Of a stretch of DNA of 64,000 nucleotides, positions 11,018-27,500 are shown piece by piece (position 1 is the first letter of the stretch; each line of letters opens with the position of its first letter). Position numbers and translations under genes: made by a program. The DNA is from Dehalococcoidia bacterium. GTDB lineage: Bacteria > Chloroflexota > Dehalococcoidia > Bin125. Below the pieces are notes generated by a model. The model had not been told where the DNA came from. It did no database searches and saw only the letters and a program-made list of their open reading frames with translations. The DNA lies in NCBI GenBank assembly GCA_963663235.2, contig CAXXNO010000004.1, positions 832,001-896,000 of the forward strand, written 5' to 3'.

Positions 11018-12595
11018 CTAGGGAAGCGGCGCGAACGGATCGTCGGGGTCGAACGGGGCGGTGAAGTCGACACCGACGGCCGCCAGATCGCCGGTGAGAT
11101 CCTCACCCGCGGGCCGTATGCCGTCTTCGATCCAAAGGCTTAAGTCCTGCAGAGCCCGCACGAGCTCATTGGTGGAAAAGTTGCAGTGGCCCGCGCGGCG
11201 CACGGCGCGCGTCACGAGGTTGTCCGAGTATCCCGTCTGCCGAACCAGCAGCTGGTACGCGGCATCCAGCGAGATGGGGGTCTCGATATCTCCAGTCCCC
11301 TTGAGCGTGAGCAGCGGAACTTCGAGGCCGCCGGTGGCGATACCCAGAGCGGGGTCGCGCCGGGCGTCGGTGGTCGCAGCGAAACGGACGACTTCGGCGT
11401 TGAGCGCGTCGATGTCGATGGCGCCGGGCGGATCGACGGCGTAGACGACGTCCACAGTATCGAAGGCGGCGAGTGAGGAATCGTGTGAGATCACAGCGCC
11501 GGGCTGTCGCGCCTGCTCGCCCGCCAGGATGTCCGGCCAAACGATGGCCCCGAACTCCCAGTTGATCGACCAAGCGCCGGCCAGGCCCGCCAAGAAGCCC
11601 CACCGATCTCCGCCGGTGAGCGCCCGGATCACGGCGGCGAAGCGATCTCCATCAGGCGTCAGGTGGAGCTCCCCATCCTCGATGGTCCCCAAGCGCGCAG
11701 CCCAGGCCAGGATGCCGTCGCCGTCGGGGCGGGAGGGGAAGTCTCCGAGAATCCAGGCGGCCACGGCGTGCCAGGACGCGACGAAGTCCACGCCGGCGGC
11801 GTTTCCGAGCGCGCCGCAGAACGCCAAGGCGCCGTCGATCTCCTCGGGAAACTCTTGCGCCATCAGTTGAGCGGTGGCTCCGCCCATCGAGGCCCCGAGC
11901 ACATAGACTCGCCGCGGCGGGCCGACTTCCTCGACGAAGCGGTCCTTCAGCCGCAGCAGTTCGTCGACGCCGAGGGCGGGAACGAAGCCGTTGGAGCAGT
12001 AGGTGCTGGCAGCCCAGGCGTAGCCGAAGGAGGGCAGAAGACGTACGGGCATTAGGTTTCCGAAGCCCAGGGCGGGATTGAGGTCCGTGCCTTCCTCGTT
12101 GAGGCCGCTGAAGCCGTGCGCCCACAGCACCAAGGCGCCGTTCCAGTCATCGGGCACCAGGATGCGATAGGCCGCGCCGTCCAGCACGCCGAAGTAGGCC
12201 GTGGCGCCGGGCGGGGCGCTAAAGGCCGCATCGACGAGCGTGCAATCGTCGCAACGGCGGTCGGGCATGAGGAGGCGGCGCGTCTGCGGGGCCGTCGGGG
12301 GCGACGTCTCCGCCTCCGCGTCCGCCTCCGCGTCCGCCTCCCCGTCGGCGTCAACGTCCGGGCCGGCTTCCGCGCCGGCTTTCGTGCCCACACCGTTTGG
12401 GGACTCCGCAGGGGAGGAGGCCGCGGGCGCTCCGTCATCCGCTATCGCGGCCTGATCAAGCGGCGATTGTGGGGCGGGCTCTCCGCCGCCGCAGGCGGCG
12501 AGGAGCAGCGCCGCAAGGACGACGCCCGCCGCGAGCGCTGGGGTGCGTCGCGCGCCGGGGAACTGCCGCAGAGTGCCGAGCATCTGAGCGAACAC
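11018..12595 (-). CDS. Lipoprotein with alpha/beta hydrolase domain
   Basis: Lipobox LAAC, low-complexity linker, WAHG, GASMGG nucleophile elbow, GHC; start uncertain. Confidence 0.75.
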   Translation of the reverse strand: MFAQMLGTLRQFPGARRTPALAAGVVLAALLLAACGGGEPAPQSPLDQAAIADDGAPAASSPAESPNGVGTKAGAEAGPDVDADGEADAEADAEAETSPPTAPQTRRLLMPDRRCDDCTLVDAAFSAPPGATAYFGVLDGAAYRILVPDDWNGALVLWAHGFSGLNEEGTDLNPALGFGNLMPVRLLPSFGYAWAASTYCSNGFVPALGVDELLRLKDRFVEEVGPPRRVYVLGASMGGATAQLMAQEFPEEIDGALAFCGALGNAAGVDFVASWHAVAAWILGDFPSRPDGDGILAWAARLGTIEDGELHLTPDGDRFAAVIRALTGGDRWGFLAGLAGAWSINWEFGAIVWPDILAGEQARQPGAVISHDSSLAAFDTVDVVYAVDPPGAIDIDALNAEVVRFAATTDARRDPALGIATGGLEVPLLTLKGTGDIETPISLDAAYQLLVRQTGYSDNLVTRAVRRAGHCNFSTNELVRALQDLSLWIEDGIRPAGEDLTGDLAAVGVDFTAPFDPDDPFAPLP

Positions 12596-12625: not shown

Positions 12626-13774
12626 TCATGGTCGAACGGAGCCGAGCGTACGATCGCCGGCGGTGCGGAAGTGGTCGAGCGCGCGGGGGTCCAGCCGAAC
12701 GCCGAGGCCCGGCTCCGTCGGGACCAGCATACGGCCACACTCAATGCGGAGCGGACGTCCGAGAAGGTCCGAGGCCAGCAGCCCCGCCGTGGCCAGGCCG
12801 CACGGTGGGATCTCCCCCGGCAGCGACGCCGCCAGGTGTAGCGCCGCCGCCGTCGCGACACCGCTGTCGATGGTCGTCGTGACGACAGTGCGCAGGCCCG
12901 CCTCCGCCGCTAGCAGGGCGATCTCGCGGGCGGGCTGGAGGCCGCCCAACGACATCGGCTTGAGGACGAGCACTTGTACGGCCCGGGTGTCGAGAACGCG
13001 CTGGACGGATTCGCGATCGGTGAGGCTCTCGTCGGCCGCGATGGGCACGGCGACCTGCCCGCGCACGGCGCGCAGGCCGCGGAGGTCGGCGGCGGCGACG
13101 GGCTGCTCGACCCACTCCAGGTCATAGGGCTCCAAGGAACGGATGACAGAGACCGCCTGCTCCACGCTCCAGGCGCCATTGGCATCGAGGCGGAGGGCAA
13201 CGTGCGGGCCCAAGGCATCGCGCGCGGCAGCGACCCGATCCCGCGTCGCCGCCGCGTCCCGTTCCATGCCGACCTTCAACTTCACGGCGCGATAGCCCGC
13301 ATTCCGCGCCGCCGAAGCGGCAGCGTGCACATCGACGGGACGGACGGCCCCGACGCTCGCGTTGACCGGGACCGCGGTTGCGGCAGGCGACCCCATCAGA
13401 CCCTGCGCCGCGCTCACGCCCGCCGCCCGCGCCTCGGCGTCGAGCAAGGCGACATCCAGCGCGCACGAAACCGCCGCGCGCCCCGGGCCCTGCGGCACCT
13501 CCGCTACCGCGCGCCGGGCGGCGGCTAGATCGAGGCCAAGGAGCGTCGGGGCCAAGGAGCGAACGATCCCCTCGGCGTGGGCGGCGTCGCCTTCGCCACG
13601 CTCCGGGAGCGGCGAAGCCTCCCCGAGGCCGTCGACACCGGCGTCGGTGTGGATGCGCAGGATCAGGCCCTCGCGCACGGCGGCGACACCGTCGGGTGCC
13701 CCCGCGGTGGCGAACTCCGCGACGAAGGGCAAGCGAAACGGACTCCAGCGGAGACCGATGACGCGCACGGTCAA
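12626..13774 (-). CDS. menC: o-succinylbenzoate synthase
   Basis: Enolase superfamily motifs KLKVG, DANG, EQP, ADES; coupled to menD. Confidence 0.85.
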   Translation of the reverse strand: MTVRVIGLRWSPFRLPFVAEFATAGAPDGVAAVREGLILRIHTDAGVDGLGEASPLPERGEGDAAHAEGIVRSLAPTLLGLDLAAARRAVAEVPQGPGRAAVSCALDVALLDAEARAAGVSAAQGLMGSPAATAVPVNASVGAVRPVDVHAAASAARNAGYRAVKLKVGMERDAAATRDRVAAARDALGPHVALRLDANGAWSVEQAVSVIRSLEPYDLEWVEQPVAAADLRGLRAVRGQVAVPIAADESLTDRESVQRVLDTRAVQVLVLKPMSLGGLQPAREIALLAAEAGLRTVVTTTIDSGVATAAALHLAASLPGEIPPCGLATAGLLASDLLGRPLRIECGRMLVPTEPGLGVRLDPRALDHFRTAGDRTLGSVRP

Positions 13775-15558
13775 GCCTCGACATTGCTGTGCAATGCCCC
13801 GCGCACCCGAGCGGCGACCGCCTGCCAGATCTCGCGGTGAAGCGCGGCGTTGGCCGCGCGCTCCGTCTGGACCTCGACCAGTGCCACGCCCGGCTTGCCC
13901 AAGCTCTGGGCCACGGCGTCGCGGAAGTCGGCCGCCCGCCGAACCGGGCGGTGATCGAGACCGTAGAGCGCGGCGGCGTGGCGGAAATCGAGGCCATGCG
14001 GGGTGCCAAAGAGCTGCTCGAAGTCTTCGACCTCGTCAGCCTGCGGGAGGAAGGAGAAGATGCCGCCGCCGTCGTTGTTGATCAGCACGATGGTGGCGTG
14101 AAGGTCGTGGCGCTTCACGGCGAAGAGGCCGTTGAGGTCGTGGTAGAGAGAGAGGTCCCCGATCACCAGCACGAGCGGCCCCGGGCCGGCGGCCGCCGCG
14201 CCCAGCGCCGTGGAGACCACGCCGTCGATGCCGCTGCTGCCGCGGTTGCCCAGGACTCGCAGCGCCCGCGCGCCCCCGTGATAGAAGCCGTCGAGGTCGC
14301 GGACGGGCATGCTGTTGCCAACGAAGAGCGTCGCGCCGTCCGGCAGGAGGTCCGCGAGCTCCGTGAACACCCGCGGCTCGGAGATGCCGTCATCCCGGGC
14401 AAGGAGGTCGCGCTGGACGGCTGCCGTCTCCGCCGCACAGGTCCGCCAGCGGCCGTGCCAGGCCTCGCGCCGCCCGCGGGCCGCCGGGTCAAGCGGCGGA
14501 AGCGCGGCAGTGAGCGCGTCGCAGAGGGCGCGGGCGTCGGCGTGGAGGGCGGTCGAGGCGGCGAGCGTCGGATCGTTCCAGCCTTCGCCGTCGGTAATGA
14601 GCCATTGGGGGCAGGCGGGATCATCGAGGAACTGCAAGAGCGGCTTGGAGGTGGGGGTCGCGCCGAAGCGGAGGACGAAATCCGGCCGCAGCGCCCGGGC
14701 GGTCTCCGCATCGCGGAGAAAGGCGTCGTAGCCGGCGATCACCCGAGAGCGGTCGTGGGGCCCACAACGGACCTGGGAGAGGGGATCGGCCAGCAGTGGG
14801 AGGCCGAGCGTGGCGGCCAGCCAGGCGACCGCTTGCGGAAAGTGTGGATCGGCCTGGGGCCCACAGACGATGAGTCCGCGATCGCCGGCGCTGACGTGCG
14901 CGACGGCAGCCGCGACGGCCTCCCCATCAGGCTGACCGCCGGCATGATGCACCACGGCCGATCGGGGACGCGGTGCGTCCCGATCCGCGCCAGGCGGCGC
15001 GCTGGGGATCAGCGGCTCCCGAAAGGGGAGATTGAGGTGCACCGGCCCGGCCGGCCGGGCCTCCGCGACCGCCACCGCGCGGGCCGCGGTCAGGTCCACA
15101 TAGCGGAGCATCTGCGGGGTGGCCTCCGGCAGCGCGACCTCCACGGAGCGCTTGACCATGGAGCCGAAGAGCCGGATTTGGTCGATCGTCTGATTCGCGC
15201 CGACGTCACGCAGCTCCGGGGGGCGGTCGGCGGTCAGCACGAGCAAGGGCACGCGGCCATAGCGGGCCTCCGCGACCGCCGGGGCGAAGTTGAGCGCCGC
15301 AGTGCCCGAGGTCGAGAGGAGAGCGACCGGCTTGCCGGTCGCCTTGGCGATTCCCAGCGCGAAGAAGGCCGCCGATCGCTCATCGAGATGGACCCAGACG
15401 CGGATCGCGGGGTGGCGTTGGAACTCGAGGGCCAAGGGGGTGGAGCGGGAACCGGGGCAGAGACAGACCTGGGCGATGCCGGCGCGGGCCATCGCATCGA
15501 CGAATGCGCCCACGTATCGATGCAGCACTGCGCCGGGCGCCAGATCCGGGTCGGTCAC
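13771..15558 (-). CDS. menD: SEPHCHC synthase
   Basis: CPGSRSTPL, DERSAAFFALG, TSGTA, NSMPVRD, NRGSSGIDG, GDLS...NNDGGGIF motifs. Confidence 0.96.
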   Translation of the reverse strand: MTDPDLAPGAVLHRYVGAFVDAMARAGIAQVCLCPGSRSTPLALEFQRHPAIRVWVHLDERSAAFFALGIAKATGKPVALLSTSGTAALNFAPAVAEARYGRVPLLVLTADRPPELRDVGANQTIDQIRLFGSMVKRSVEVALPEATPQMLRYVDLTAARAVAVAEARPAGPVHLNLPFREPLIPSAPPGADRDAPRPRSAVVHHAGGQPDGEAVAAAVAHVSAGDRGLIVCGPQADPHFPQAVAWLAATLGLPLLADPLSQVRCGPHDRSRVIAGYDAFLRDAETARALRPDFVLRFGATPTSKPLLQFLDDPACPQWLITDGEGWNDPTLAASTALHADARALCDALTAALPPLDPAARGRREAWHGRWRTCAAETAAVQRDLLARDDGISEPRVFTELADLLPDGATLFVGNSMPVRDLDGFYHGGARALRVLGNRGSSGIDGVVSTALGAAAAGPGPLVLVIGDLSLYHDLNGLFAVKRHDLHATIVLINNDGGGIFSFLPQADEVEDFEQLFGTPHGLDFRHAAALYGLDHRPVRRAADFRDAVAQSLGKPGVALVEVQTERAANAALHREIWQAVAARVRGALHSNVEA

Positions 15559-17015
15559 GGAGCGCCCAGCGCCCAGCGCATCGAGCGCATCTTGAGGCGG
15601 GATTCCTCGTACTCGCTCTCGGCGTCGGAGCCGGCGACAATGCCGCAGCCCGCGTACAGCGAGGCGCGGCCGCCTTCGATCAGCGCGGAGCGAATGGCCA
15701 CGACGAAGTCGCCGTTCCCGCGGGCGTCCATCCAGCCCAGCGGCCCGGCGAACCAGCCCCGGTCGAAGGGCTCGTAGTCGCGCAACAGCGGCAGAGCGCG
15801 CTCACGCGGGACACCGCCCACGGCCGGCGTGGGATGCAGCCGGTCGACGAGATCGAGCGCCGTGGAAGAGCGAGCGAGCGTGCCGCGGAGATCGGTTTGG
15901 AGGTGCTGCACGTCGGGCAGACGCAGGAGGGCCGGCTGCGGCGCCACGTCCAGTTCGATGCAGACGGGCGCGAGTGCGTCCTCAAGCGCGCGGACGACCA
16001 TCGCGTGCTCGCGACGCTCCTTGGGGTCGGCGAGCAGGGCCTGTGCCCGATCCCCATCCTCGACGGCACCGCGGCCGCGCGGAGCGGAGCCGGCGAGCGC
16101 CACCGCACGGACATCGCGACCGCGCAGCGACACCAGCAACTCCGGGGTGGCGCCGAGAAAACAGCGATCACCGTCGGCCAGCGCGAAGACGGTCCCGGCT
16201 CCGTAGCGATCGCGCAGCCGCCGGAGGACGGCGCCGCAGTCGAACGGACGGTCAGCCTCCAAGGTGGAGCGCCGGGCGAGCACCAACTTCTCGATCTCGC
16301 CACGGCTGATGGCAGCGACGATGTCGGTCACGGCCCGCCGCCATGCGTCAGGCGGCGGATCATCCAGCGCGCGCACCTGTGGCTGGGCAACATCGCTGCG
16401 GGCGGAGTCGCCGCCGACCGCGCGGGGCGGACTGCCGGAGAGGAGCTCGTCGACGCGGCAGAGGAGCGGCCCTGGATCTTGCAAGGGGCCGTCCGGCACC
16501 ACCTGGACCTGCACCTGCAAGGAGCAGGCATCGCCGCGGCGGAGCGCCAGCAGGGTGGGAACGACGAGCCAGCCGCGAGGCCAGCCGCTCCAGGTGGCGT
16601 CCGGCGGACGGGCAGGGTCAAACGCCGATCCGCTCAGACAGAGCGGATCCAGGCCGGGCTCAGAACCCGCCGGCTCAACGCAGGCGTCCGCGGCCAGCGC
16701 GCGCCAGGCCGCAGCCATGGAGCCAGGCTCCGGCAGCGGCGCCACGCCGTCGCTGCGGAACTCCGCGCTCGCGCCGACGGCGGCCATCTCGAGGGGCGGG
16801 TCTTGTCGCCGCCAATAGGCGCGTCGATCGCCGGCGGCGCGTTCGAAGATCTCCATCGGTTCGATGGGGGAGAGGGGCACGCTCAGGCTGACCAGCACAG
16901 GCCGGGACGTCCGCGCGGCGCGCTCCGCGGCCGAGTGAATGAGGGCGGGCAAGCGCCGGCCCAGGGTGGCGGGGCCAGGGCCTCGATCTCGCAGGGTCGC
17001 TGGATGTGCTGGCAT
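15555..17015 (-). CDS. menF: Isochorismate synthase
   Basis: KLVLAR, GATPELL, ALAGS, KERREH, LHPTPAVGG, AIRSAL, YAGCGIV motifs; ATG 17015 chosen just below the operator. Confidence 0.92.
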   Translation of the reverse strand: MPAHPATLRDRGPGPATLGRRLPALIHSAAERAARTSRPVLVSLSVPLSPIEPMEIFERAAGDRRAYWRRQDPPLEMAAVGASAEFRSDGVAPLPEPGSMAAAWRALAADACVEPAGSEPGLDPLCLSGSAFDPARPPDATWSGWPRGWLVVPTLLALRRGDACSLQVQVQVVPDGPLQDPGPLLCRVDELLSGSPPRAVGGDSARSDVAQPQVRALDDPPPDAWRRAVTDIVAAISRGEIEKLVLARRSTLEADRPFDCGAVLRRLRDRYGAGTVFALADGDRCFLGATPELLVSLRGRDVRAVALAGSAPRGRGAVEDGDRAQALLADPKERREHAMVVRALEDALAPVCIELDVAPQPALLRLPDVQHLQTDLRGTLARSSTALDLVDRLHPTPAVGGVPRERALPLLRDYEPFDRGWFAGPLGWMDARGNGDFVVAIRSALIEGGRASLYAGCGIVAGSDAESEYEESRLKMRSMRWALGAP

Positions 17016-17027
17016 GGCAGAGACGAG

Positions 17028-17059
17028 AAACCGACTCACCAGTCGGTTTTGCCACGCTA
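17028..17059 (-). promoter_or_regulatory. Operator palindrome AAACCGAC-TCACCA-GTCGGTTT (17028-17049) plus TAGCGT -10-like box (17054-17059)
   Basis: Perfect inverted repeat 12 nt above the menF ATG; same element at 26558. Confidence 0.75.
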
Positions 17060-17284
17060 TCAGACGGCCCGGAGCCCACAAGAGGAGGGCAAAAGAGGGC
17101 CAACGAGGGGGCGCCCAGAAGGGTGGGGGCGAGGTTAGCGAGGCCGACGCATCGTCACCCGCTGAAAGGCGCGCGCCCGGCGCGCCCGCTGCCGCTTCTT
17201 CCGCCAATCCGCCACGGCCATCGCCGGGTAGAGAACCGATGCGACCGCCACAACGCCGATGCCGATCAACGCTTCCGCCATGAG

Positions 17285-18001
17285 TCAGCGATCCCTTCCA
17301 CCAATCCGTCCGTGCGGCGGGTGTCCCGTGACGCTGCGGGCCGAGCGGGCGGCCTGCCGCGCCAGGCGGATCGGCGCCGGTGTGCGGGCCGCGCCCGAGA
17401 GAGCGCGCACCACGGTGACGGCGGTCTCCGCGTCCGTGCGCCAAGCGGCGTGTACGGCCAACGGCCGACGGCCCTGCCGCACGCAGAGCCAGCAGCCAAC
17501 TAGATCCCCCAGCAGCCGGAGGGCACTCGTGGCACCGGGCTCATCGGCCGGGGGAGCGCCCTCCGCAAGCAACGGACGATCGGTCACTCCGATCGTCGGC
17601 AGATCGAGCACGGATCCTAAGTGCAGCGCCAATCCGGCGCGGCGGGGATGGTCGCGGCCGGTGGCGTTTACGAGCACGAGGTCCGGCCGCTCCGGCAGCG
17701 CGCGAACGGCCGCCTCCAGCAGAGCGCCCTCCCGCAGCGCCAGAAAGCCGGGGCGGTAGGGGAAGCCCGCGGAACCCGGCACCACGCGCGTGACCAGCGC
17801 GTGACCGTCCAACAGCAGCGCCGCGGCGGCCCAGGCTCGATCGCCGCGTGCGCCGTCGCCCGCGATGCCCCGCTGAAAGCAGACGAAGACACCGGCCCCG
17901 CGCAGCGGCCCCGCCGCGGGCTGCCAGAGGTCAAGGCGCGCGCGGCCGAGATCCGTCTGCAGGCGCAGCAGGCCAGCGTCCGACTGCGGCCAGGTCGCCA
18001 C
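17285..18001 (-). CDS. Endonuclease V-like protein with degenerate active site
   Basis: PYRPGFLALREG, VNATGRDHPRRAGLALHLG, PTIGV, RTPAPIRLA motifs. Confidence 0.8.
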   Translation of the reverse strand: MATWPQSDAGLLRLQTDLGRARLDLWQPAAGPLRGAGVFVCFQRGIAGDGARGDRAWAAAALLLDGHALVTRVVPGSAGFPYRPGFLALREGALLEAAVRALPERPDLVLVNATGRDHPRRAGLALHLGSVLDLPTIGVTDRPLLAEGAPPADEPGATSALRLLGDLVGCWLCVRQGRRPLAVHAAWRTDAETAVTVVRALSGAARTPAPIRLARQAARSARSVTGHPPHGRIGGRDR

Positions 18002-18065
18002 GGCCTCAGGCTATACTCAGCCGCGCCCACAGGCCCCGTCTCCCGCCCGCGAAAGGAGCACGCCG

Positions 18066-18833
18066 ATGCCGGTTCCCGGCGAAGTCACCGATTTGGGGCG
18101 AGTCCAGACAGAGGAGATCCGCTACCCGAGCGAGGACACCGCGATCGAGGCGTACGTGGCGCGCCCGCGTGAGGCCGGCGCGAAGCCGGGGATCATCGTG
18201 ATCCACGAGGCGTTCGGCCCGGTCGAGCACATCCGCGACGTCGCCCGCCGGTTCGCCAACATCGGCTTCACGGCGATCGCCCCGAACCTCTACACGCGCG
18301 AGGGCGCGCCGGACCCCAAGGACATGAACTCCGTCTTCCCGAAGATGTTCGGCCGGCCGGACGCTGAAGTCGTTCGCGACCTGGAGGCAGCGGCCGCGTA
18401 CCTCCGCAGCCAGCCGGACAGCAACGGCAAGGTCGGCTGTATCGGCTTCTGCTCCGGGGGGCGGCAGACGCTCCTCTTCGCCTGTTCCAGCGCGACCGTG
18501 GACGCGGCGGTTGATTGCTGGGGCGGATTCATCAGCCGGGCGACGCAGGAGGACCAGACGACGGCCGCGCGGCCGACGCCGATCATCGACCTCAGCGAGC
18601 AGTTGCACTGCCCGCTCTACGCCGTGATCGGTGAGGAGGACGAGAACCCATCGCCAACCGAGGCGGCGGAGTTGGAGCGGCGGCTGAAGGACGCGGGCAA
18701 GACGTTCCAGGTCGAAGTATTCACCGATGCGGGACACGCGTTCCTGGCCGACTACCGCCCGTCCTATCGGGAGGGGCCGGCGCTCAAGCTCTGGCCGAAG
18801 ATCGTGGCGTTCTTGGAGACGCAGCTACGCTGA
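18066..18833 (+). CDS. Dienelactone hydrolase family protein
   Basis: IHEAFG, GFCSGG, AGHAF motifs; AAGGAG RBS. Confidence 0.92.
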   Translation: MPVPGEVTDLGRVQTEEIRYPSEDTAIEAYVARPREAGAKPGIIVIHEAFGPVEHIRDVARRFANIGFTAIAPNLYTREGAPDPKDMNSVFPKMFGRPDAEVVRDLEAAAAYLRSQPDSNGKVGCIGFCSGGRQTLLFACSSATVDAAVDCWGGFISRATQEDQTTAARPTPIIDLSEQLHCPLYAVIGEEDENPSPTEAAELERRLKDAGKTFQVEVFTDAGHAFLADYRPSYREGPALKLWPKIVAFLETQLR

Positions 18834-18849
18834 TCCCGGCGTCGCCGGG

Positions 18850-19236
18850 CTATTCCGCCGGCCCGGCGAGAGGGCGCGCGAAGCTGAGCTCGTGGCCGTC
18901 GGGATCAGTGATATGGAAGTAACGCTCGCCCCACTCGGCATCGCGCGGGGCGGTGTCGGGCGTGAGGCCGGCGGCGATGGCCCGCTGGTGGAACGCGTCC
19001 ACGTCTGAGACGTAGAAGATCACACGGCCCCACCACGCCCAGCGACGACTCGCGGGCTGCGCCGTGAGGTTCAGGTAGCCCTGTTCCAGAGCGAAGCTGG
19101 TGAACGAAGCGCGCTCGTCGCCGTAGAGGAGCGCGAATCCCAAGGCGCGATAGAAGTGCACCGCGCGCGCCATGTCATGGGTGGCGAGCGTGAGCGCGCT
19201 GATGCAGTCGATGGTCGGGGCGGGCTCGGGGGTCAC
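18850..19236 (-). CDS. VOC/glyoxalase family protein
   Basis: DMARAVHFYRALG, WGERYFHITDPDGHELSF motifs. Confidence 0.88.
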   Translation of the reverse strand: MTPEPAPTIDCISALTLATHDMARAVHFYRALGFALLYGDERASFTSFALEQGYLNLTAQPASRRWAWWGRVIFYVSDVDAFHQRAIAAGLTPDTAPRDAEWGERYFHITDPDGHELSFARPLAGPAE

Positions 19237-19308
19237 GCGCGGATGATAGGCGATGGCCGTAGCAGCGTGATCGCCGGACCGGACGTACTGAGCCGGGCAG
19301 CGCCTTCG

Positions 19309-19995
19309 TCAGGCGCCATCGCTCTCCCGTTCGGCGGCGCGGCGGAGGATCTCCATGCAGCGCGCGTCCGGCACCGGGGGGAACTGTTCATAGAAGGCGC
19401 CTACCGCGCCGAACGGGCTCGGGGTGGCGATCACGATCACGCGTGCGCCCATCTGCTCCAGGCGGTGCACGGCCTCCTCGGCGGCAACCGGCACCGCGAC
19501 CAGCACAGCCGCCGCGCCGGCACGCTGCGTCGCGTCCACGGCGGCCGCCATCGTGGCGCCGGTGGCGAGGCCGTCGTCGACGAGGAGGACGCGGCGGTCG
19601 CGCACCGGCTCGGCCGGCCGCGCGTCGCGATAGTCGCGCTCGCGTCGCTCCACCTCGTCCAGCTCGCGGCGTCGCGCCGCCTCCAGGTCGGCGGGACTGA
19701 GGTCGAACATGGCCAGGAAGTCGTCGTTCCAGATCGTGCCCAGGCGGGTGACAGAGCCGACGGCCAGCTCCGGGGAGCCCGGCGCGCCAATCTTGCGCGC
19801 GATCAGCGCATCGAGCGGCAAGCACAGCCCTTGGGCGACCGGCTCGGCGACCTCCAGCCCGCCGCGGGGGATGGTGAGGATGAGGTCCGCCCGCACGTGC
19901 AGGCTGCGGAGCAGGTCCAAGAGCCGTCGGCCCGCGTCCAGGCGATCGCGGAAGCGGACCGGCTCAGAGCGCCGAGGGATGAAGCGACTGAGCAT
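19309..19995 (-). CDS. Phosphoribosyltransferase family protein
   Basis: FRDRLDAG, IPRGG, RKIGAP, LVDDGLATGATM motifs. Confidence 0.88.
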   Translation of the reverse strand: MLSRFIPRRSEPVRFRDRLDAGRRLLDLLRSLHVRADLILTIPRGGLEVAEPVAQGLCLPLDALIARKIGAPGSPELAVGSVTRLGTIWNDDFLAMFDLSPADLEAARRRELDEVERRERDYRDARPAEPVRDRRVLLVDDGLATGATMAAAVDATQRAGAAAVLVAVPVAAEEAVHRLEQMGARVIVIATPSPFGAVGAFYEQFPPVPDARCMEILRRAAERESDGA

Positions 19996-20148
19996 CCACG
20001 CCTCCCCATGCCAGCCCTGGAAGAATCGCACGCCGGCGCGCCCTGTGCGCGAGCGAATCAACTAGAACGGCCACAAATAAGGTCGGGAGCGGATGTGTGG
20101 GCCAGCGGTGCATGGATAGCTTGAGCGTGAGACTCGGAACGATCCGGC

Positions 20149-22596
20149 TCAGGATAGGACGGGAGGCCCGTGAGCGCCGTCGTTGCCGGCGGCAGCCAGG
20201 CGTTGCATCTCATCGAGGGCGTCCGCCACGTCGCGGAAGATCGTGTCCTCGGGGTACGTCCCGTCATCGCGGAGGCTCCCGGCGGGCCGGCCAGTGAGCA
20301 GCTCCAGCCCTTCCTCAATGCCGGAGACCTGCCAGATGTGGAAGCGGCCATCGTCGACGGCTTGGACCAGGTCGTCGCGGAGGGTCAGGTTGACGACGTT
20401 GCTGGCGGGCATCATCACCCCCTGGCTCCCCGTCAACCCCACCTCGCAGCAGACGTCGTAGAAGCCCTCCACCTTCTCCGTCACGCCGCCGACCGGCTGG
20501 ATGTTGCCGAACTGGTCCACGGAGCCGGTCACGGCGATGTCCTGCCGGATGGGGACGCCGGCGAGCGAGGTGAGGATGGCGTACAACTCCACCGAAGAGG
20601 CGCTGTCCCCTTCCACTTCGTCGTAGCTCTGCTCGAAGGTGATGCTGGCGGTGAAGGCCAGCGGGCGCTCGCGGCCGAAGACGCCCATGAGGTAGCCGCT
20701 GAGGACAAGCACGCCCTTGGAGTGGATGGCGCCGCTGCGCTCGACTTCGCGGTCGATCGCCACGACGCCACGGCGGCCGAGGCCGATACGGCAGGTGATG
20801 CGCGTGGGAGTGCCCAAGGCGTGGCTGCTCAACTGGTAGACGGCGAGGCCGTTCACCTGGCCGACCACGGCGCCGGAGGTCTCCACGTGCAGCGTCCCCT
20901 CCGCGATCATGCGCCGCAGGCGGTCGGCGACGAGGCCGGAGCGGCGGCGCTTGCCGGCGACCGCGGCGCGGACGTGGGCCGCGGTGACCGTGTCGTGGCC
21001 TTCATCGGCGGCGAGTTGGTCCGCCTCCCCACAGAGGTCCTCGATCGCGCCCAGGCGGGTGCTGAGCCGGTCCTGCCGCCCGGCCAGGCGGGCGCCGAAG
21101 CGCAGCACCTCTTTGAGGGCATCGCGGGTGAGGTGGCGCAGGCCGCGGTGCCGCACGGCGTGGCAGACGAAGCCGGTGTAGGCGGCCAGCGACTCGGCAT
21201 CGACCGGGGTGTCGGGCTCGAACTCGGCGCGGATCTTGAAGAGCGCGGGGAAGTCCGGGTCCATCGCATCCAGGAAGGCGAACGCCATCGGCGAGCCGAC
21301 CAGCACGACCTTGAGGTCCAGCGGGATGGCCTCCGGGATGACGTTGACGGTGGGGATGGGCGTGGAGCCGGCCCCGACGTCCTCCACGCGCGCCTCTTTG
21401 CACTTGAGGCTGCGCTTGAGCTTGAGCCAGGTGCGGGGATCGGTGAGGACGTCTTGGACCTGCAGCACGAGGTAGCCGCCGTTGGCGTGGTGCACCGCGC
21501 CGGGACGGATGAGAGTGAAATCGGTGGTCAAGGCGCCGGCCCGCGGCTCGAAGTCGAGGCGGCCGAAGAGGTTGTAGTAGGTGGGCTGGCCCTCGACCAC
21601 GACCGGCGCGGCGGTGGCCGGCTCGTCGCCGTGGGTGACGAAGAGGTTGACCGTGTAGCGCTTCAGGAGCTGCTCGCGCTGCTCGGTGATCTGCGCCAGC
21701 GGCTGCGGCGGGACGCCATCGGCCTGTGCTTCCGGACGTCGCCGCAAGCCATCGACATTGGCGATGATGTCCGTTTCCACAGCGTCGAAATGCTCGGCCA
21801 ACCCGTGGGGGGCGTACTTCTCCCGGAGGTCATCCAGGATCGGCCCGACCACGAAGCGAGTCACGTCCTTATCCAGCGCGGCGAGCGCCTGTTGCGCCCG
21901 TTGGTCCAGCTTGCGCAGCTGTCGCACGGTGGCGCCCACCGTCTCTTGCACGGTCTTGCCGCCCTGCTCGATGGACGCTTGCATCTCCGGAGGCAGCGAC
22001 TGGATGACTTCGGGCGTTAACGGCTGGCCGTCCCGGTCCTTGGGCATCGCCACAAACCCCATTTGCGTGACGTTCACCAAGTAGCCGAATTGATCGGCGG
22101 TGCGCTGCATGGCCTCCAGGATCTCGCCACGCTCCGTGCCGACCGGCTGCAGCGTTTGCGACCGGCGCTCCTGGTAAGACTCGCTTTCGAAGGCTCGGGG
22201 GACCTCCGTGCGGCAGGCCTCGACGAGCTCGGCGAGGTCGCGCTGCAGATCGTCACCCAGCCCGGAGGGGAGCGCCACGGCGCGCGAGCGGTAGGGGTCG
22301 CGGAAGCTGTAGAGGTAGCACCAGTCGGAGACGGGAGCATTGCCGGCGGCGGCCTCGTTGACCAGCTGGCGCACCGCCATGTTCTTTCCCGCCCCCGGCG
22401 GACCAGAGACGGCGATGTTGTAGCCGTCCGCCTGCACGCGGAGACCGAAGGCGATGGCCTCCTGCGCACGCTGCTGGCCGGCGACCGCCTCGAGCGGTTC
22501 CACGTCCGCCGTCGACGGCGGGAGGTCCGTATCGGCGAACTGAGCGCAAAGCTGATCCGACCGCAGTTGCAGCGAATCCATCACCGTCGTGCTCAC
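20149..22596 (-). CDS. Lon-like (LonC/AAA_32) protease
   Basis: GQQRA, GPPGAGK, ANGGYL, GQVNGL, FEQSY..VEGDSAS (catalytic Ser), GGVTEKVEGF (Lys); GAAGGGAG RBS before GTG 22596. Confidence 0.92.
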   Translation of the reverse strand: MSTTVMDSLQLRSDQLCAQFADTDLPPSTADVEPLEAVAGQQRAQEAIAFGLRVQADGYNIAVSGPPGAGKNMAVRQLVNEAAAGNAPVSDWCYLYSFRDPYRSRAVALPSGLGDDLQRDLAELVEACRTEVPRAFESESYQERRSQTLQPVGTERGEILEAMQRTADQFGYLVNVTQMGFVAMPKDRDGQPLTPEVIQSLPPEMQASIEQGGKTVQETVGATVRQLRKLDQRAQQALAALDKDVTRFVVGPILDDLREKYAPHGLAEHFDAVETDIIANVDGLRRRPEAQADGVPPQPLAQITEQREQLLKRYTVNLFVTHGDEPATAAPVVVEGQPTYYNLFGRLDFEPRAGALTTDFTLIRPGAVHHANGGYLVLQVQDVLTDPRTWLKLKRSLKCKEARVEDVGAGSTPIPTVNVIPEAIPLDLKVVLVGSPMAFAFLDAMDPDFPALFKIRAEFEPDTPVDAESLAAYTGFVCHAVRHRGLRHLTRDALKEVLRFGARLAGRQDRLSTRLGAIEDLCGEADQLAADEGHDTVTAAHVRAAVAGKRRRSGLVADRLRRMIAEGTLHVETSGAVVGQVNGLAVYQLSSHALGTPTRITCRIGLGRRGVVAIDREVERSGAIHSKGVLVLSGYLMGVFGRERPLAFTASITFEQSYDEVEGDSASSVELYAILTSLAGVPIRQDIAVTGSVDQFGNIQPVGGVTEKVEGFYDVCCEVGLTGSQGVMMPASNVVNLTLRDDLVQAVDDGRFHIWQVSGIEEGLELLTGRPAGSLRDDGTYPEDTIFRDVADALDEMQRLAAAGNDGAHGPPVLS

Positions 22597-22641
22597 GGGG
22601 CGCTCCCTTCCGTGCCGCACCGGCATGGCCCGGCGCTTATT

Positions 22642-24174
22642 CTATCGATTCTCGTTCTGGCGATTCTCTTTCGCGTCCGGAGTCGAGCGGGACAACAGCG
22701 CCCGCAGAACATCACGGCGCAGCTTGCCCGCTGCGTTGCGCGGTAACGCCGCCAGGACACGGATGGCGTCGGGGCGCTTGTACGCAGCCAGGCGCTCCGC
22801 GCAGAAGCGGCTGAGAGCGTCGGTGTCGGCGGAGGCGCCGAGGCGGAGGCAGACAGCCGCGACCGGGCGCTGCCCCCAACGGGCGTCCGCCACGGCGACC
22901 ACCCCCGCATCCACGACATCCGGATGCGTGAGCAACACGGCTTCGACCTCGGCGGGGTAGACGTTCTCGCCGCCGGAGATGATGAGGTCGGCTCGGCGGT
23001 CGAGCACGCGGAGCCCGCCGTACTCATCCAGGGAGCCGACATCTCCGGTGTGGAGCCAGCCGTCCACGACGGTGCGCGCGGTCGCTTCGGGATCGGCGTC
23101 GTAGCCCGCCATCACCGTCGGGCCGCGCACGAGGATCTCGCCCGCTTCGCCCGGCGGCAGATCGACGCCGTCCCGCACGATGCGGATCTCCGTGTTCCAG
23201 AGGGGCCGCGCGGCCCGACGGGCAGAGGGGGACTCCGAGGCGAGGGGCGGGGGCACTGTCGCCACCTGCGAAGCCGTCTCGGTCAGGCCGTAAGTAGGCG
23301 CCACGGGGATGCCGCGAGCGGCGCAGTCGGCGAGCAGCGGCGCCGGGGCGGGACCGCCGCCGAGCAGCGCCAGCCGGAACGTGGGCGGGTAGGGCCGATC
23401 GCCGCGCTCCTCCAGCATCGCGGCCAGCATGCGGGCGACCACAGAGACGATGGTGACGCCGTCGTTGTCGATGGCGCGGTTGGCGGCGGCCGGATCGAAG
23501 GACGCGTGCAGGACGACGGGGATACCGCAGATCACGCTGCGCAGCAGGATCGCCAGGCCGCCGACGTGGTAGAGGGGCATGCAGGCGAGCCAGCGGTCGT
23601 CGTCGTGGAGGCCCAGACTGAGCGCCGAGCCCAAGGCGCTCCAGAGGTGGTTGCCGAAGGTCAACATGGCGCCCTTGGGGCGGCCGGTGGTGCCGGAGGT
23701 GAAGACGATGGAGTGCACAGCGGATTCATCGATGTGGCGTGCGTCGAGGGGGTGAGCGTCGTCGGGCAGGGGGTCCGAGGCCGCCAGGGCGGACAGCGGC
23801 AGGAGGCGCAGGCCATCGCGCCCTCTCGCCAGTTCGTTCCCCAGCGCCGAATGGGCATCGTCGGCGATCAGGAATCGAGCGGCCACGGCGTCGATCTGAT
23901 AACCGAGCTCGGGCGGCATCAGGCGCAGGTTGAGGGGCACGAAGACGGCGCCGAGGCGGGGAACCGCGTGCACGCACTGCACGAGAGCCGGCCCGCTACC
24001 TGCCAGCACGGCGACGCGATCGCCCGGTCGCACGCCTGCAACATCGAGGTGGGCGGTGAAAGCCCGGACCGCCGCGCGTAGCTCGTCGAATGTCCAGCGG
24101 CGCCCGTCCCAGATGAGCGCCGGTCGGTCCGGCGAGCGCAGGACGCGTTGGTCCAGCCAGTCGGGCATGGACAT
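22642..24174 (-). CDS. menE: o-succinylbenzoate-CoA ligase
   Basis: FTSGTTGRPKG, PLYHVGGL, YGLTETASQ, SGGENVYP motifs; men gene context. Confidence 0.92.
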   Translation of the reverse strand: MSMPDWLDQRVLRSPDRPALIWDGRRWTFDELRAAVRAFTAHLDVAGVRPGDRVAVLAGSGPALVQCVHAVPRLGAVFVPLNLRLMPPELGYQIDAVAARFLIADDAHSALGNELARGRDGLRLLPLSALAASDPLPDDAHPLDARHIDESAVHSIVFTSGTTGRPKGAMLTFGNHLWSALGSALSLGLHDDDRWLACMPLYHVGGLAILLRSVICGIPVVLHASFDPAAANRAIDNDGVTIVSVVARMLAAMLEERGDRPYPPTFRLALLGGGPAPAPLLADCAARGIPVAPTYGLTETASQVATVPPPLASESPSARRAARPLWNTEIRIVRDGVDLPPGEAGEILVRGPTVMAGYDADPEATARTVVDGWLHTGDVGSLDEYGGLRVLDRRADLIISGGENVYPAEVEAVLLTHPDVVDAGVVAVADARWGQRPVAAVCLRLGASADTDALSRFCAERLAAYKRPDAIRVLAALPRNAAGKLRRDVLRALLSRSTPDAKENRQNENR

Positions 24175-24178
24175 GCGG

Positions 24179-25084
24179 CTAGACCAGCAGCCCGGCCGCC
24201 AGCAGCACCCCGAAGAGCAAGTGCAGCTGGCCGGTTTGCTTGAGGATGGGATTCAGGGCGCGGCCCTCGACGCCGCCGACGACGCGCGCCGCGAGCAGCG
24301 CCGCCAGCGGCGCGCTGAGCCAAGCCAACCAGGACCACCAAGGCAGCAGGCCGACGGCGCTGAAGGCGGCGATCAGGACGTAGGGCGCCGTCACGAGCAG
24401 CAGATAGTCGACGCGCGTGGCGCGCGCGCCCAGGATCACGGCCAGCGTGCGCTTGCCGCTGCGACGGTCGGTATCGAGATCGCGCAGGTTGTTGACCACC
24501 AAGATGGCCGTGACCGTCATGCCGATGGGGATCGACGCCGCCAGGGCGCGCCAAGCGAGCTCTTCCGTCTGCACGAAGTAACTGCCGACCCCCGCCGCCA
24601 AACCAAAGAAAACAAACACGAACGGATCGCCCAAGCCGTGATAGCCGAAGGGCCAGGGGCCGCCGGTGTAGGCCAGCGCGGCGAGGATCGCCGCAGCGCC
24701 CAGCACCAGGACCGGCCAACCCGCCACCACGATCAGATAGACGCCGATCAGCGCCGCCGCCGCCAGCACGGCCAGCGTGGCCCAGCGCATCTCGGCAGCC
24801 GAGACCAGACCGCTCTGCGTAGCCCGCTGCGGGCCGAGGCGATCCTCGCGGTCGGCGCCCCGAACGAAGTCTGAGAAGTCGTTGGCGAAGTTGGCGCCAA
24901 CCTGCAACAGCACCGCCGCGCCCAGCGCTGCAATGAACGGCAGCAGGCGCAGCGCAGTGTCCGCATCGGCCGCGGCCGTGCCGACGAGGACCGGAGCGAT
25001 CGCGGCCGTCAGCGTCGCCGGCCGGGCCGCCATCAGCCAGACGCGCCAGGCAGGGACCGAACGCCGAGCCTGCTCGTGTAACAC
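24179..25084 (-). CDS. menA: DHNA prenyltransferase
   Basis: ARPATL, NFANDFSD, YTGGP, NNLRD...GKRTLAV motifs. Confidence 0.94.
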   Translation of the reverse strand: MLHEQARRSVPAWRVWLMAARPATLTAAIAPVLVGTAAADADTALRLLPFIAALGAAVLLQVGANFANDFSDFVRGADREDRLGPQRATQSGLVSAAEMRWATLAVLAAAALIGVYLIVVAGWPVLVLGAAAILAALAYTGGPWPFGYHGLGDPFVFVFFGLAAGVGSYFVQTEELAWRALAASIPIGMTVTAILVVNNLRDLDTDRRSGKRTLAVILGARATRVDYLLLVTAPYVLIAAFSAVGLLPWWSWLAWLSAPLAALLAARVVGGVEGRALNPILKQTGQLHLLFGVLLAAGLLV

Positions 25085-25092
25085 CGGGCGGA

Positions 25093-25911
25093 TCAGGGAA
25101 AGCGGGGGAACTTGGAGAAGTCGGGTTTGCGCTTCTCCAGGAAGGCCCGCTGCCCCTCCTTGGCCTCGTCGGTGAGGTAGTAGAGCAGAGTGGCGTCACC
25201 GGCGAGCTGCTGGAGCCCGGCCAGGCCATCGGTGTCGGCGTTGAAGGCCGCCTTGAGAAGCCGCAGCGCCATGGGGCTTTTCTGGAGGATCTCGCGGCAC
25301 CAGTCGATCGTCTCCTCCTCCAAGCGGTCGAGCGGGACGACGGCGTTGATCAGGCCCATTTCGAGCGCCTCCTGCGCCGAATACTGGCGGCAGAGGTACC
25401 AGATCTCGCGGGCCTTCTTGTGCCCCACGATGCGGGCGAGCAGGGTTGAGCCGTAGCCACCGTCGAAGGAGCCGACCTTGGGGCCCGTCTGTCCGAAGAC
25501 GGCGTTGTCGGCGGCGATGGTGAGGTCGCAGACGATGTGCAAGACGTGTCCGCCGCCGATGGCGTAGCCGGCCACCATCGCGATCACCGGCTTGGGAATG
25601 GTGCGGATCTGACGTTGTAGCTGGAGCACGCTCAACTCGGGCGTGCCGGCATCGTCCACATACCCGCCCTCACCGCGGATGCGCTGGTCCCCGCCGGAGC
25701 AAAACGCTTCGCGTCCCGCGCCGGTCAGGACGACGACGCCGACGTCCAAGTCCAAGTGCGCGCGCGAGAAGGCGTCGCGGAGCTCGGCCAGGGTCTTGGG
25801 CCGGAACGCGTTGCGCACCTCGGGGCGGTTGATGGTGATCTTGGCGATCCCATCGGCGCGCTCATAGAGGATGTCGTCGTAATCGTGCTGCCGTTGCCAA
25901 GCGATCGCCAT
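25093..25911 (-). CDS. menB: 1,4-dihydroxy-2-naphthoyl-CoA synthase
   Basis: [38 protein letters not shown] motifs. Confidence 0.97.
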
Positions 25912-25929
25912 AGGCCGTTCCTTTGCCCC

Positions 25930-26547
25930 TCAGCGCTCCGCCGACACGGTGTCGGTCGCGGCGCCCACGCTGCGCAGGAGGAGGAGGCGTAGCGTGGGAA
26001 AGAGATCCTCCAGCCGCCCCGGGGACGGCGTCAGGAGCCAGCGCGCCAGCACGGCGTTGAGGATGCCGACCCAGGCCTGAGCCGTCACCCCGGTGTCAAT
26101 CGGTTCGATCACGCCATCCGCCACCGCCTGATCCAGCTGCTCCTGAATCACCGCTTCGAATTGTTGCTGGATCACGAGCATGCGCTGATTGAAGCGGGGC
26201 CCGGCTCCCAGCGCTTCGATGGCGAAGACGCGCGCCAGGGTGCGGTGCTTGCCCAGCGTGCGTAGCAGCACCAGCAAGGCCGCCGTGGCTTTGGCGACGG
26301 GGTCGGTTTCTGCGTCCATCGCGGTGCGCAGCTTGCCCATCAGCAGCGTCGCCGTGTGGTCCAGCAGCGCGAACAAGAGCGCTTCCTTGCCGGGGAAGTG
26401 AAAATACAGCCCGCCCTTCGACGTCCCAGCGGTGAGGGCGATCTCGTCGATGGCGGCGTCGCTGTAACCGCGCCGCGCGAAGACCTTTGCGGCCGCGGAC
26501 AGGATCCGTTGCTGGCGATCGCGGGCGCGGGCTTGCTGGACAGGCAT
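25930..26547 (-). CDS. TetR/AcrR family transcriptional regulator, first gene of the menBAE operon
   Basis: ILSAAAKVFARRGY...IDEIA...SKGGLYFHFPGKEAL HTH. Confidence 0.93.
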   Translation of the reverse strand: MPVQQARARDRQQRILSAAAKVFARRGYSDAAIDEIALTAGTSKGGLYFHFPGKEALLFALLDHTATLLMGKLRTAMDAETDPVAKATAALLVLLRTLGKHRTLARVFAIEALGAGPRFNQRMLVIQQQFEAVIQEQLDQAVADGVIEPIDTGVTAQAWVGILNAVLARWLLTPSPGRLEDLFPTLRLLLLRSVGAATDTVSAER

Positions 26548-26557
26548 GGATGTGCAA

Positions 26558-26590
26558 AAACCGACTGAGCCGTCGGTTTCAGCTACGCTA
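26558..26590 (-). promoter_or_regulatory. Operator palindrome AAACCGAC-TGAGCC-GTCGGTTT (26558-26579) plus TAGCGT -10-like box (26585-26590)
   Basis: Inverted repeat 10 nt above the tetR ATG, in the divergent tetR/menG spacer; matches 17028. Confidence 0.75.
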
Positions 26591-26646
26591 GCAAACAGCC
26601 CCGAGGCGAACAAGGCCCTCGTGACGCCGACGGCCCGGGATGGCGC

Positions 26647-27399
26647 GTGTCCGAACCGTCCTCCGACCAGGTGAACGCCCGGCAGATCCAGGCGATGTTC
26701 AGCCGGATCGTGCCGCGCTACGACCGGATGAACCGCTGGATGACCTTGGGGCTGGACGGCCGCTGGCGGCGCGCGGCCGCGCGGAAGGCCGAGCCGGAGG
26801 ATGGCTGGGCGCTGGACCTGGGCGCCGGCACCGGGGACCTCAGCCGCGCCTTGCACCAGGCCGGGGCGCGGCGGGTGGTCTCGGCCGACTTCTCGCGGCG
26901 GATGCTGGTGGCGGGACAGGCCAAGGCGGCAGCGGGGCACCATCGCCAACCGAGCTGGCTGCTGGCCGACGCGCCGGCGCTGCCGTTCGCCGACGACACG
27001 TTCGACGCCGTGGTCAGCGGCTTCTTGCTGCGCAACCTGGTGGACCTCCCCGCGGGCCTGAGCGAGATGATCCGGGTTCTCAAGCCGGGCGGCCGCCTGG
27101 TGGCGCTGGACATTACCCACCCGCCGGCGGGGCCGCTGGCCGCGATTACCCGGGGCACGTTCCACCGGCTGGTCACGCCCCTGGCGGGGCGTTTGAGCGG
27201 CGATCGCGACGCGTATCGCTATCTGGCCGAATCGCTGAGCGGCTTCCCGGAGGCGCCCGCCCTGGCAGCGCTCATCGCGGAAGCGGGCGGGCAGGAGGCG
27301 GGATTCCAGCGGCTGGGCGGCGGCGCCATGGCGCTGCACTGGGCCCGTAAAGCTGCAGGGAGCCCCGGCGGAAGATCACAGGGAAGCCCGGCGGCGTGA
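26647..27399 (+). CDS. menG: Demethylmenaquinone methyltransferase (UbiE/MenG)
   Basis: MFSRIVPRYDRMN, LDLGAGTGD, LPFADDTFD, LRN, RVLKPGG, AYRYLAES motifs. Confidence 0.92.
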   Translation: MSEPSSDQVNARQIQAMFSRIVPRYDRMNRWMTLGLDGRWRRAAARKAEPEDGWALDLGAGTGDLSRALHQAGARRVVSADFSRRMLVAGQAKAAAGHHRQPSWLLADAPALPFADDTFDAVVSGFLLRNLVDLPAGLSEMIRVLKPGGRLVALDITHPPAGPLAAITRGTFHRLVTPLAGRLSGDRDAYRYLAESLSGFPEAPALAALIAEAGGQEAGFQRLGGGAMALHWARKAAGSPGGRSQGSPAA

Positions 27400-27500
27400 G
27401 CCCCGTTGCGAGATATACACTACCCTATACGACATATAGACGCGGTCGATAGAACGTGGGTCGGCCACAGACCGCATCCCCCAATGGAGGGGTCATCAGC

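Follow-up and report, generated by a model that had tools for sequence, protein, structure and literature searches.

A putative TetR-family regulator and its shared operator in the menaquinone biosynthesis genes of Chloroflexota

Regulation of quinone levels has been stated to be poorly understood, and in the recent literature control of the menaquinone (men) pathway consists only of enzyme-level feedback (1,4-dihydroxy-2-naphthoate, DHNA, acting on MenD), limits of flux or substrate, and antisense effects (PMC12421875). The men operons of S. aureus are subject to antisense and transcriptional-interference control, according to the available part of PMC7154746; the corresponding part of PMC12692220 covers only the global regulator SinR, and that of PMC4045070 holds nothing relevant on men transcription factors. 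Here we analyze 64,000 nucleotides of a Dehalococcoidia genome (contig CAXXNO010000004.1, positions 832,001 to 896,000; hereafter the window), in which the gene of a 205-aa TetR-family protein (tetR) heads one men gene cluster and a 22-bp inverted repeat, AAACCGAC-N6-GTCGGTTT, lies both above tetR and above a second men cluster. We consider it very probable, judging from sequence and comparative data, that this TetR is a dedicated repressor of menaquinone biosynthesis through o-succinylbenzoate (OSB), acting via these two operators. The pathway, and the presumed purpose of bounding quinone levels, are the same as in the described systems; however, those controls are enzymatic or act at the RNA level, whereas the one proposed here would be a DNA-binding transcription factor with a defined operator. 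A literature search, made without subscription journals, regulon databases such as RegPrecise, or supplements, revealed no dedicated transcription factor for men genes, of the TetR family or otherwise. This result and the generic names given to the protein agree with the initial annotation of the window, which knew of no characterised factor of this kind.

Comparison with described TetR-family proteins

The tetR gene (25930..26547, minus strand) codes for a FadR-like protein with the N-terminal helix-turn-helix (HTH) of the family (PF00440, TetR_N; residues 15-61, 59.5 bits vs a cut-off of 24) and the C-terminal domain PF17932 (TetR_C_24; 29 bits vs a cut-off of 26.4), and it can be aligned with solved TetR structures from one end to the other. 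Against the PDB, the family profile matched best the FadR proteins of B. halodurans (PDB 5gp9; E 2.4e-30) and B. subtilis (8e-29), both over the full length, and 6azh, 5k7f, 6srn, MbdR and FasR were among its other best PDB matches; KstR2 ranked lower, both with a 19-sequence profile and in single-sequence searches. Bacillus FadR (YsiA; PDB 5gp9/5gpc, 3whb and 1vi0), the closest solved relative over the full length, is a TetR-family repressor that responds to long-chain acyl-coenzyme A (acyl-CoA) and binds as a dimer of dimers to a pair of 16-bp inverted repeats shifted by 4 bp, as the available part of PMC5397183, the source of all FadR details below, describes. Its base-contacting Gly42 and Tyr45 (B. 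halodurans numbering) align with G45 and Y48 of our TetR (PMC5397183), within a recognition-helix stretch, TSKGG-YFHF (T42-S43-K44-G45, Y48-F49-H50), that is invariant in 60 orthologues. Residues R106, R187 and W159 are also invariant in the orthologues, and H101 and R102 nearly so. Furthermore, the autoregulatory layout of the two proteins is alike, and many orthologues have operators of two repeats offset by 4 bp that resemble the FadR operator, whereas the window's own are single repeats (PMC5397183).

Despite this likeness, an identification as FadR was rejected because the protein scores below the model cut-off, has a different operator and different neighbours, and does not conserve Arg117. 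With the Bacillus-type FadR model NF053878 the window TetR reached 67.9 bits vs an equivalog cut-off of 200, and all 60 orthologues matched it weakly (best E 2.1e-28). The FadR box is of the ATGAATGA type, in contrast to ACCGAC-N6-GTCGGT here (PMC5397183), and FadR targets are fad genes of fatty-acid degradation, whereas the neighbours here are men genes in 77/80 loci. Arg117 of FadR, the ligand anchor at the cavity exit, aligns to a non-conserved Asn120 (PMC5397183), in a loop of uncertain alignment with Arg118 and Arg122 nearby, and several bulky residues of the FadR cavity correspond in the alignment to Leu or Ala. The ScbR-type gamma-butyrolactone receptor model NF041196 also fell short (83 bits vs a cut-off of 150), NCBIfam holds no model for this TetR family, and with a threshold of E <= 1e-30 there were 265 relatives, the best 120 of which have only generic names in their sources (TetR/AcrR, AcrR family, once 'fatty acid metabolism').

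Full-length similarity, with E values of 1e-12 to 1e-20, extends to MbdR (4uds), FasR (6o6n), KstR2 (4w97) and 5k7f, the last of which we take to be AibR. Like the TetR of the window, each of them is pathway-specific and encoded beside its targets; the repressors among them control catabolic or lipid pathways and none is tied to menaquinone genes. These closest solved relatives are presumably, for the most part, sensors of acyl-CoAs or CoA-thioesters.

Distribution of the operator and of tetR

Operator 1 (O-menF; 17028..17049, no strand assigned) reads AAACCGACTCACCAGTCGGTTT and lies 12 nt 5' of the menF ATG (17015, minus strand), and operator 2 (O-tetR; 26558..26579, likewise) reads AAACCGACTGAGCCGTCGGTTT and lies 10 nt 5' of the tetR ATG (26547, minus strand). 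Sequence reading confirmed both positions, as given in the initial annotation, together with the identical minus-strand TAGCGT found 4-5 nt 5' of each palindrome. A scan of the window allowing up to 3 mismatches returned these two sites only, with 0.06 matches expected by chance and two or more matches in 0/100 shuffles. In the host genome (2.75 Mb, 14 contigs, 69% G+C) the 12-base core ACCGAC-N6-GTCGGT was exact at the two men sites only; at one mismatch or fewer there were 24 matches vs 9 for a reversed control. A position weight matrix (PWM) built from 105 related sites, the window's own two included, scored these two at 36.1 and 31.6 bits and the next best in the host genome at 20.9 and 15.6. 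The suggestion that the palindrome is a chance match or a functionless dispersed repeat finds nothing in its favour besides the high genomic G+C content; given the shuffles, the presence of only two strong sites in the host genome and a phylum-wide conservation in the same position relative to the same genes, its probability is practically nil and we regard it as already refuted. The scan of the host genome and its relatives that the initial annotation had proposed thus showed no dispersed repeat, with two exact and strong sites in the host that are kept above tetR and menF orthologues.

The third-best PWM match (20.9 bits) falls outside the window, in the region C12:38644-43643 of the host genome. 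A repeat of ~956 bp there has near-identical copies on contigs C4, C8, C11 and C12, and adjoining it are ~1.2 kb that are 98.7% identical to the genome of another genus (G003); this region is probably mobile DNA.

Orthologues of the TetR were found in 24/24 other genomes of the window's family and in 7/16 genomes from other families of the class. An even sample of Chloroflexota showed one orthologue (E <= 1e-35) in 112/401 genomes and 59/218 genera, about a quarter of the genomes; two unpublished genomes are included in this count, which is 110/399 without them. The tetR gene adjoins a men gene in 28 of the 29 loci from relatives, with menB directly downstream in 22, menF in 5 and menA nearby in one, and no men gene is in view in the remaining locus. 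Wherever the 22 menB loci reach that far, menG is divergent. The palindrome is present just 5' of tetR in 26 of the 28 relatives' loci having upstream DNA. In addition, a scan of public, named genomes for TetR similarity, irrespective of neighbours, yielded 556 relatives; the best 80, which were kept, come nearly all from metagenome-assembled genomes of Chloroflexota. The gene downstream of tetR in these 80 loci is menF in 62, menA in 10 and menB in 5 (77/80), and none of the three in the other 3. Among the 77 named loci that include 120 nt or more upstream of tetR, 76 have the motif (up to two mismatches, within 150 nt) 5' of the gene; 26 of these matches are exact, 36 differ at one position and 14 at two. 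The palindrome therefore stands directly above tetR in about 100 genomes, and its position, 10 nt above the gene's own ATG and conserved upstream of the orthologues, is that of an autoregulated TetR-family gene.

A maximum-likelihood tree of 60 TetR orthologues placed the menB-adjacent proteins in one clade (support 98/99) and indicated that the menA-adjacent layout arose at least three times within the menF-adjacent diversity. The regulator has therefore been kept beside a men gene through several rearrangements, and the tetR-men synteny whose persistence across taxa had been in question holds.

Genomes with more separate men transcription units have more operators. In the window's family, 11/11 genomes with a separate menF-menD-menC unit, the host included, carry the exact palindrome above menF plus one above tetR, so that orthologues of the menF site are present in 10/10 other family genomes having menF. 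In twelve genomes of the family menF was not found and the tetR site is present; their 5 extra one-mismatch matches all fall inside long open reading frames (ORFs), according to a crude ORF call. Other families have a single co-directional cluster, tetR-menF-menD-(alpha/beta hydrolase)-menB-(menA)-menC-menE, with one operator, above tetR, in 5/5 clusters examined. The model further predicts that genomes with a tetR-menA layout should hold another operator wherever menF lies, and such an additional operator was found directly above the distant menF in 3/5 of them, one of the two others being only 71% complete. A shared-operator regulon over menFDC and menBAE, as first proposed for the window, is supported by motif conservation, synteny, this operator count per unit and the position of the -10-like hexamer.

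Co-occurrence points in the same direction: TetR and MenB are both present in 31 of 41 genomes and both absent in 8, which makes 39/41 concordant, a figure that overstates independence as these genomes are kin; one genome, 71% complete, has TetR only and one has MenB only. The exact 12-base core gave 53 matches across the 41 genomes vs 14 for the reversed control, and is a blunt test of TetR presence, since one genus uses a GTCGGA half-site and chance matches occur. Eleven extra one-mismatch sites were fetched, of which 9 lie inside long ORFs by the crude ORF call and were treated as chance, one is in DNA 98.7% identical to another genus and one is a site in genome G028.

The G028 site bears on whether the palindrome is read by some other DNA-binding protein, the neighbouring TetR regulating something else. 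This genome has an exact palindrome on contig C269 (L054:711-730), with A/T-rich flanks and before a gene for a family-5 solute-binding protein, and neither a TetR orthologue nor MenB was found in it; all other exact 14-base matches found lie at tetR or menF. Furthermore, some genomes hold paralogues with a similar HTH. However, the site directly above tetR in about 100 genomes is the usual autoregulatory layout, motif and gene co-occur, and neither the recognition helix nor the operator arms vary, which together make a different reader of the site quite improbable. A link of the G028 palindrome to the family-5 binding-protein genes that lie downstream of tetR-menB-menA in three genera was considered and rejected, the proteins being 24% identical.

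Some further sites were observed. In G030 an exact core palindrome (G030:C1:763093-763110) lies ~350 nt upstream of a paralogous TetR-like HTH (763463-763642) that is 52% identical over residues 4-63, and this paralogue may share the DNA specificity. Identical operator pairs occur on different contigs of one assembly in two cases, G010 (C10:23083 and C15:21069) and G440 (C23 and C38; L164 and L167); both members of the G440 pair precede menF and share the same flanking sequence, suggesting that either a contig or a gene has been duplicated.

Lastly, in four genera of the window's family (G002, G006, G007, G008, G018; loci L067-L070) no menF and no menD above the TIGR00173 cut-off were found, and only enolase-superfamily relatives 27-33% identical to menC. 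These genera keep the divergent menG and tetR-menB-menA with a single operator, and a very long branch (1.59 changes per column) leads to their TetRs. In three of them a conserved ORF of ~165 aa follows menA directly (L067:9814-10317, L068:10172-10666 and L070:9634-10182, minus strand); its copies are 62-63% identical to one another, have no Pfam match and no counterpart in the host genome, and a highly conserved family-5 solute-binding-protein gene lies 3' of it.

Nature of the site and geometry of the putative promoters

Complementarity of the five inner arm pairs (core pairs 4-8) is kept in 99-105 of 105 non-redundant sites, whereas the spacer takes 60 different sequences and no compensatory double change is seen in the arm pairs. 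Invariant arms with a free spacer are the signature of a site read in its sequence by a protein and not of an RNA stem kept by pairing. Thirty of the 105 sites consist of two ACCGAC-N6-GTCGGT repeats offset by 4 bp, which gives a 26-bp palindrome. An action at the RNA level, whether as a small terminator or as a 5' hairpin that sets how stable the mRNA is or how well it is translated, could be suggested by the predicted hairpin of 9 bp (about -13 kcal/mol) at the predicted 5' end and by a T run after the tetR copy. However, it is scarcely credible given the lack of compensatory arm changes next to a freely varying spacer, and the z-scores of the hairpins are modest (-2.4 and -1.5). In addition, no terminator-like site was called at either palindrome, the Rfam search gave no match other than a sub-threshold microRNA match taken as noise, and above tetR there is no co-directional upstream gene whose transcript would need terminating.

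The conserved sites also have a fixed relation to a -10-like element. In 77/105 sites the operator is preceded, at a distance of 1-6 nt, by the end of a TANNNT hexamer, compared with 12 TANNNT matches spread over 26 positions further upstream, and it ends within 8 nt upstream of the operator in 15/15 menF-proximal sites. The sequence of the hexamer varies (TAGCGT, TACAGT, TACGAT, TACCAT and others) and its position is fixed, as for a -10 element. In the window, the TAGCGT of the putative menF promoter (17054..17059, minus strand) is preceded by TGa and lies 4 nt 5' of operator 1, and that of the putative tetR promoter (26585..26590, minus strand) is preceded by TGc and lies 5 nt 5' of operator 2. 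Candidate -35-like hexamers, as read from the sequence, are TTGTGG (17076..17081, minus strand) on the menF side and TTGTTC (26608..26613, minus strand) on the tetR side, 16 and 17 nt 5' of the respective -10-like hexamer. With this geometry the operator would cover roughly +1 to +22, a repressing position.

The same geometry bears on the sign of the regulation. The TetR could bind these sites and activate the men genes, or regulate them in both directions, in the manner of the TetR-like FasR at fas. In favour of this, the closer solved and curated relatives include FasR, and activation would suit a biosynthetic pathway. However, an operator that directly follows a conserved -10-like hexamer, with 10-12 nt left before the start codon, occupies the classic repression position, and no room is left in the window for a promoter 3' of the operator. 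Activation is therefore improbable, and repression is the reading that we follow below.

The divergent menG gene (menG/ubiE demethylmenaquinone methyltransferase; 26647..27399, plus strand; TIGR01934, 184.8 bits vs a cut-off of 158.35) starts 67 nt from operator 2, which lies in the 99-bp region between menG and tetR. A plus-strand TACGCT (26584-26589) overlaps the -10-like hexamer of tetR and could serve menG. All 40 non-redundant loci with divergent menG have a tetR-strand TANNNT 1-7 nt from the operator, and in the window's family the hexamer lies within a 7-mer (TAGCGTA or TACAGTA) whose menG strand likewise contains TANNNT, as seen in 22 of the 24 family loci among these 40. Furthermore, the entire menG-tetR spacer is only 66-85 nt long in some genomes, and therefore whatever drives menG there must overlap the operator. 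Co-repression of menG is thus likely; the membership of menG in the regulon, which had been put forward as a mere addition to menFDC and menBAE, is plausible from the shared intergenic region and the overlap of hexamers, and stands at that lower strength.

Proposed target genes, mechanism and ligand

The first unit consists of menF (isochorismate synthase; 15555..17015; TIGR00543, 317.6 bits vs a cut-off of 224.75), menD (2-succinyl-5-enolpyruvyl-6-hydroxy-3-cyclohexene-1-carboxylate, SEPHCHC, synthase; 13771..15558; TIGR00173, 486.7 bits vs 244.2), whose start overlaps the menF stop, and a menC-like gene for an o-succinylbenzoate synthase of the enolase superfamily (12626..13774), all on the minus strand. 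The menC-like gene, which overlaps the menD stop with its start and is collinear with men genes in other clusters, matched NF002782 best but reached only 157.9 bits of the 288 set as the cut-off. A 525-aa ORF (11018..12595, minus strand), 30 nt 3' of menC and with a weak alpha/beta-hydrolase signal (Hydrolase_4, 28.5 bits), is possibly part of the menFDC operon. Its assignment as MenH was tried and is unsupported, since the MenH-like hydrolase found in other clusters has only the GxSxG nucleophile elbow in common with it (E 0.025). An endonuclease V gene lies 5' of menF on the same strand.

The second unit, also on the minus strand, follows tetR with menB (DHNA-CoA synthase; 25093..25911; NF005637, 498.4 bits vs a cut-off of 380), menA (DHNA polyprenyltransferase; 24179..25084; NF004751, 333 bits vs 264) and menE (o-succinylbenzoate-CoA ligase; 22642..24174; TIGR01923, 367 bits vs 330.15). 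The order tetR-menB-menA-menE with menG divergent, as initially annotated, agrees with these gene calls, which were confirmed by curated NCBIfam cut-offs and, for tetR, by the Pfam domains. The gene of an 825-aa LonB-like AAA protease (20149-22626, minus strand) starts 15 nt after the menE stop and is perhaps co-transcribed with tetR-menBAE because of this short gap and the shared strand. On the other side, menG is followed on its strand by genes that encode a 2-oxoacid:ferredoxin oxidoreductase (alpha and beta subunits; 27456-30133, plus strand).

According to the mechanism that we propose, a TetR dimer would bind the 22-bp inverted repeat at two promoters, its own (tetR-menB-menA-menE) and that of menF-menD-menC. 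At both promoters the repeat lies 4-5 nt 3' of the -10-like hexamer and covers the predicted transcription start, so that binding would block initiation. The menG gene, divergent from the same 99-bp region, would probably be co-repressed, and a small ligand would release TetR from the operator. Our first guess for this ligand, held tentatively, is a CoA-thioester intermediate of the pathway, OSB-CoA or DHNA-CoA, because the nearest characterised relatives sense acyl-CoAs and because tetR often directly precedes menB. In addition, tetR-menB-menA and menG are kept where menF, menD and menC were not found, and the MenB substrate would be a sensible inducer there. DHNA, a quinone or a fatty acyl-CoA are alternative candidates. 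A wider proposal, somewhat more doubtful, is that TetR senses OSB-CoA, DHNA-CoA or DHNA and, in the genera in which menF, menD and menC were not found, gates a salvage route from a foreign precursor.

Several observations weigh against a dedicated, ligand-released men repressor. Two of the relatives' loci (L026 and L031) have variant palindromes only, the single exception among the named loci (L143) has a variant motif with a 7-nt spacer, and the related genomes are kin, so that the conservation counts given above are not independent. The G028 palindrome, in a genome with no TetR orthologue or MenB found, belongs here as well. A consensus promoter and terminator scan called a sigma-70-type promoter at neither operator, because TAGCGT agrees with TATAAT at 3/6 positions only, and we therefore infer the promoters from positional conservation alone. 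As for the ligand, the arginine that anchors it in FadR is missing, an intermediate that induces the first enzymes of its own pathway would be an awkward logic, and a repressor released by its ligand suits a biosynthetic pathway less naturally than a catabolic one.

Taken together, the comparative data support an autoregulated TetR regulon that spans the phylum, has a well-defined operator and comprises genes of the OSB menaquinone pathway. Little is known of how bacteria adjust menaquinone levels through transcription, and the finding comes down to one small protein and one 22-bp site, seemingly the first dedicated genetic switch to be put forward for the pathway. If the sensing of a pathway metabolite is true, the TetR would be the first dedicated transcription factor of menaquinone synthesis that responds to a metabolite, and it would be directly usable as a biosensor. 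If binding and ligand hold true, it would be the first dedicated men regulator and could provide a sensor part for engineering the production of vitamin K2 or DHNA, as well as a regulon marker for annotating this environmentally abundant and mostly uncultured phylum.

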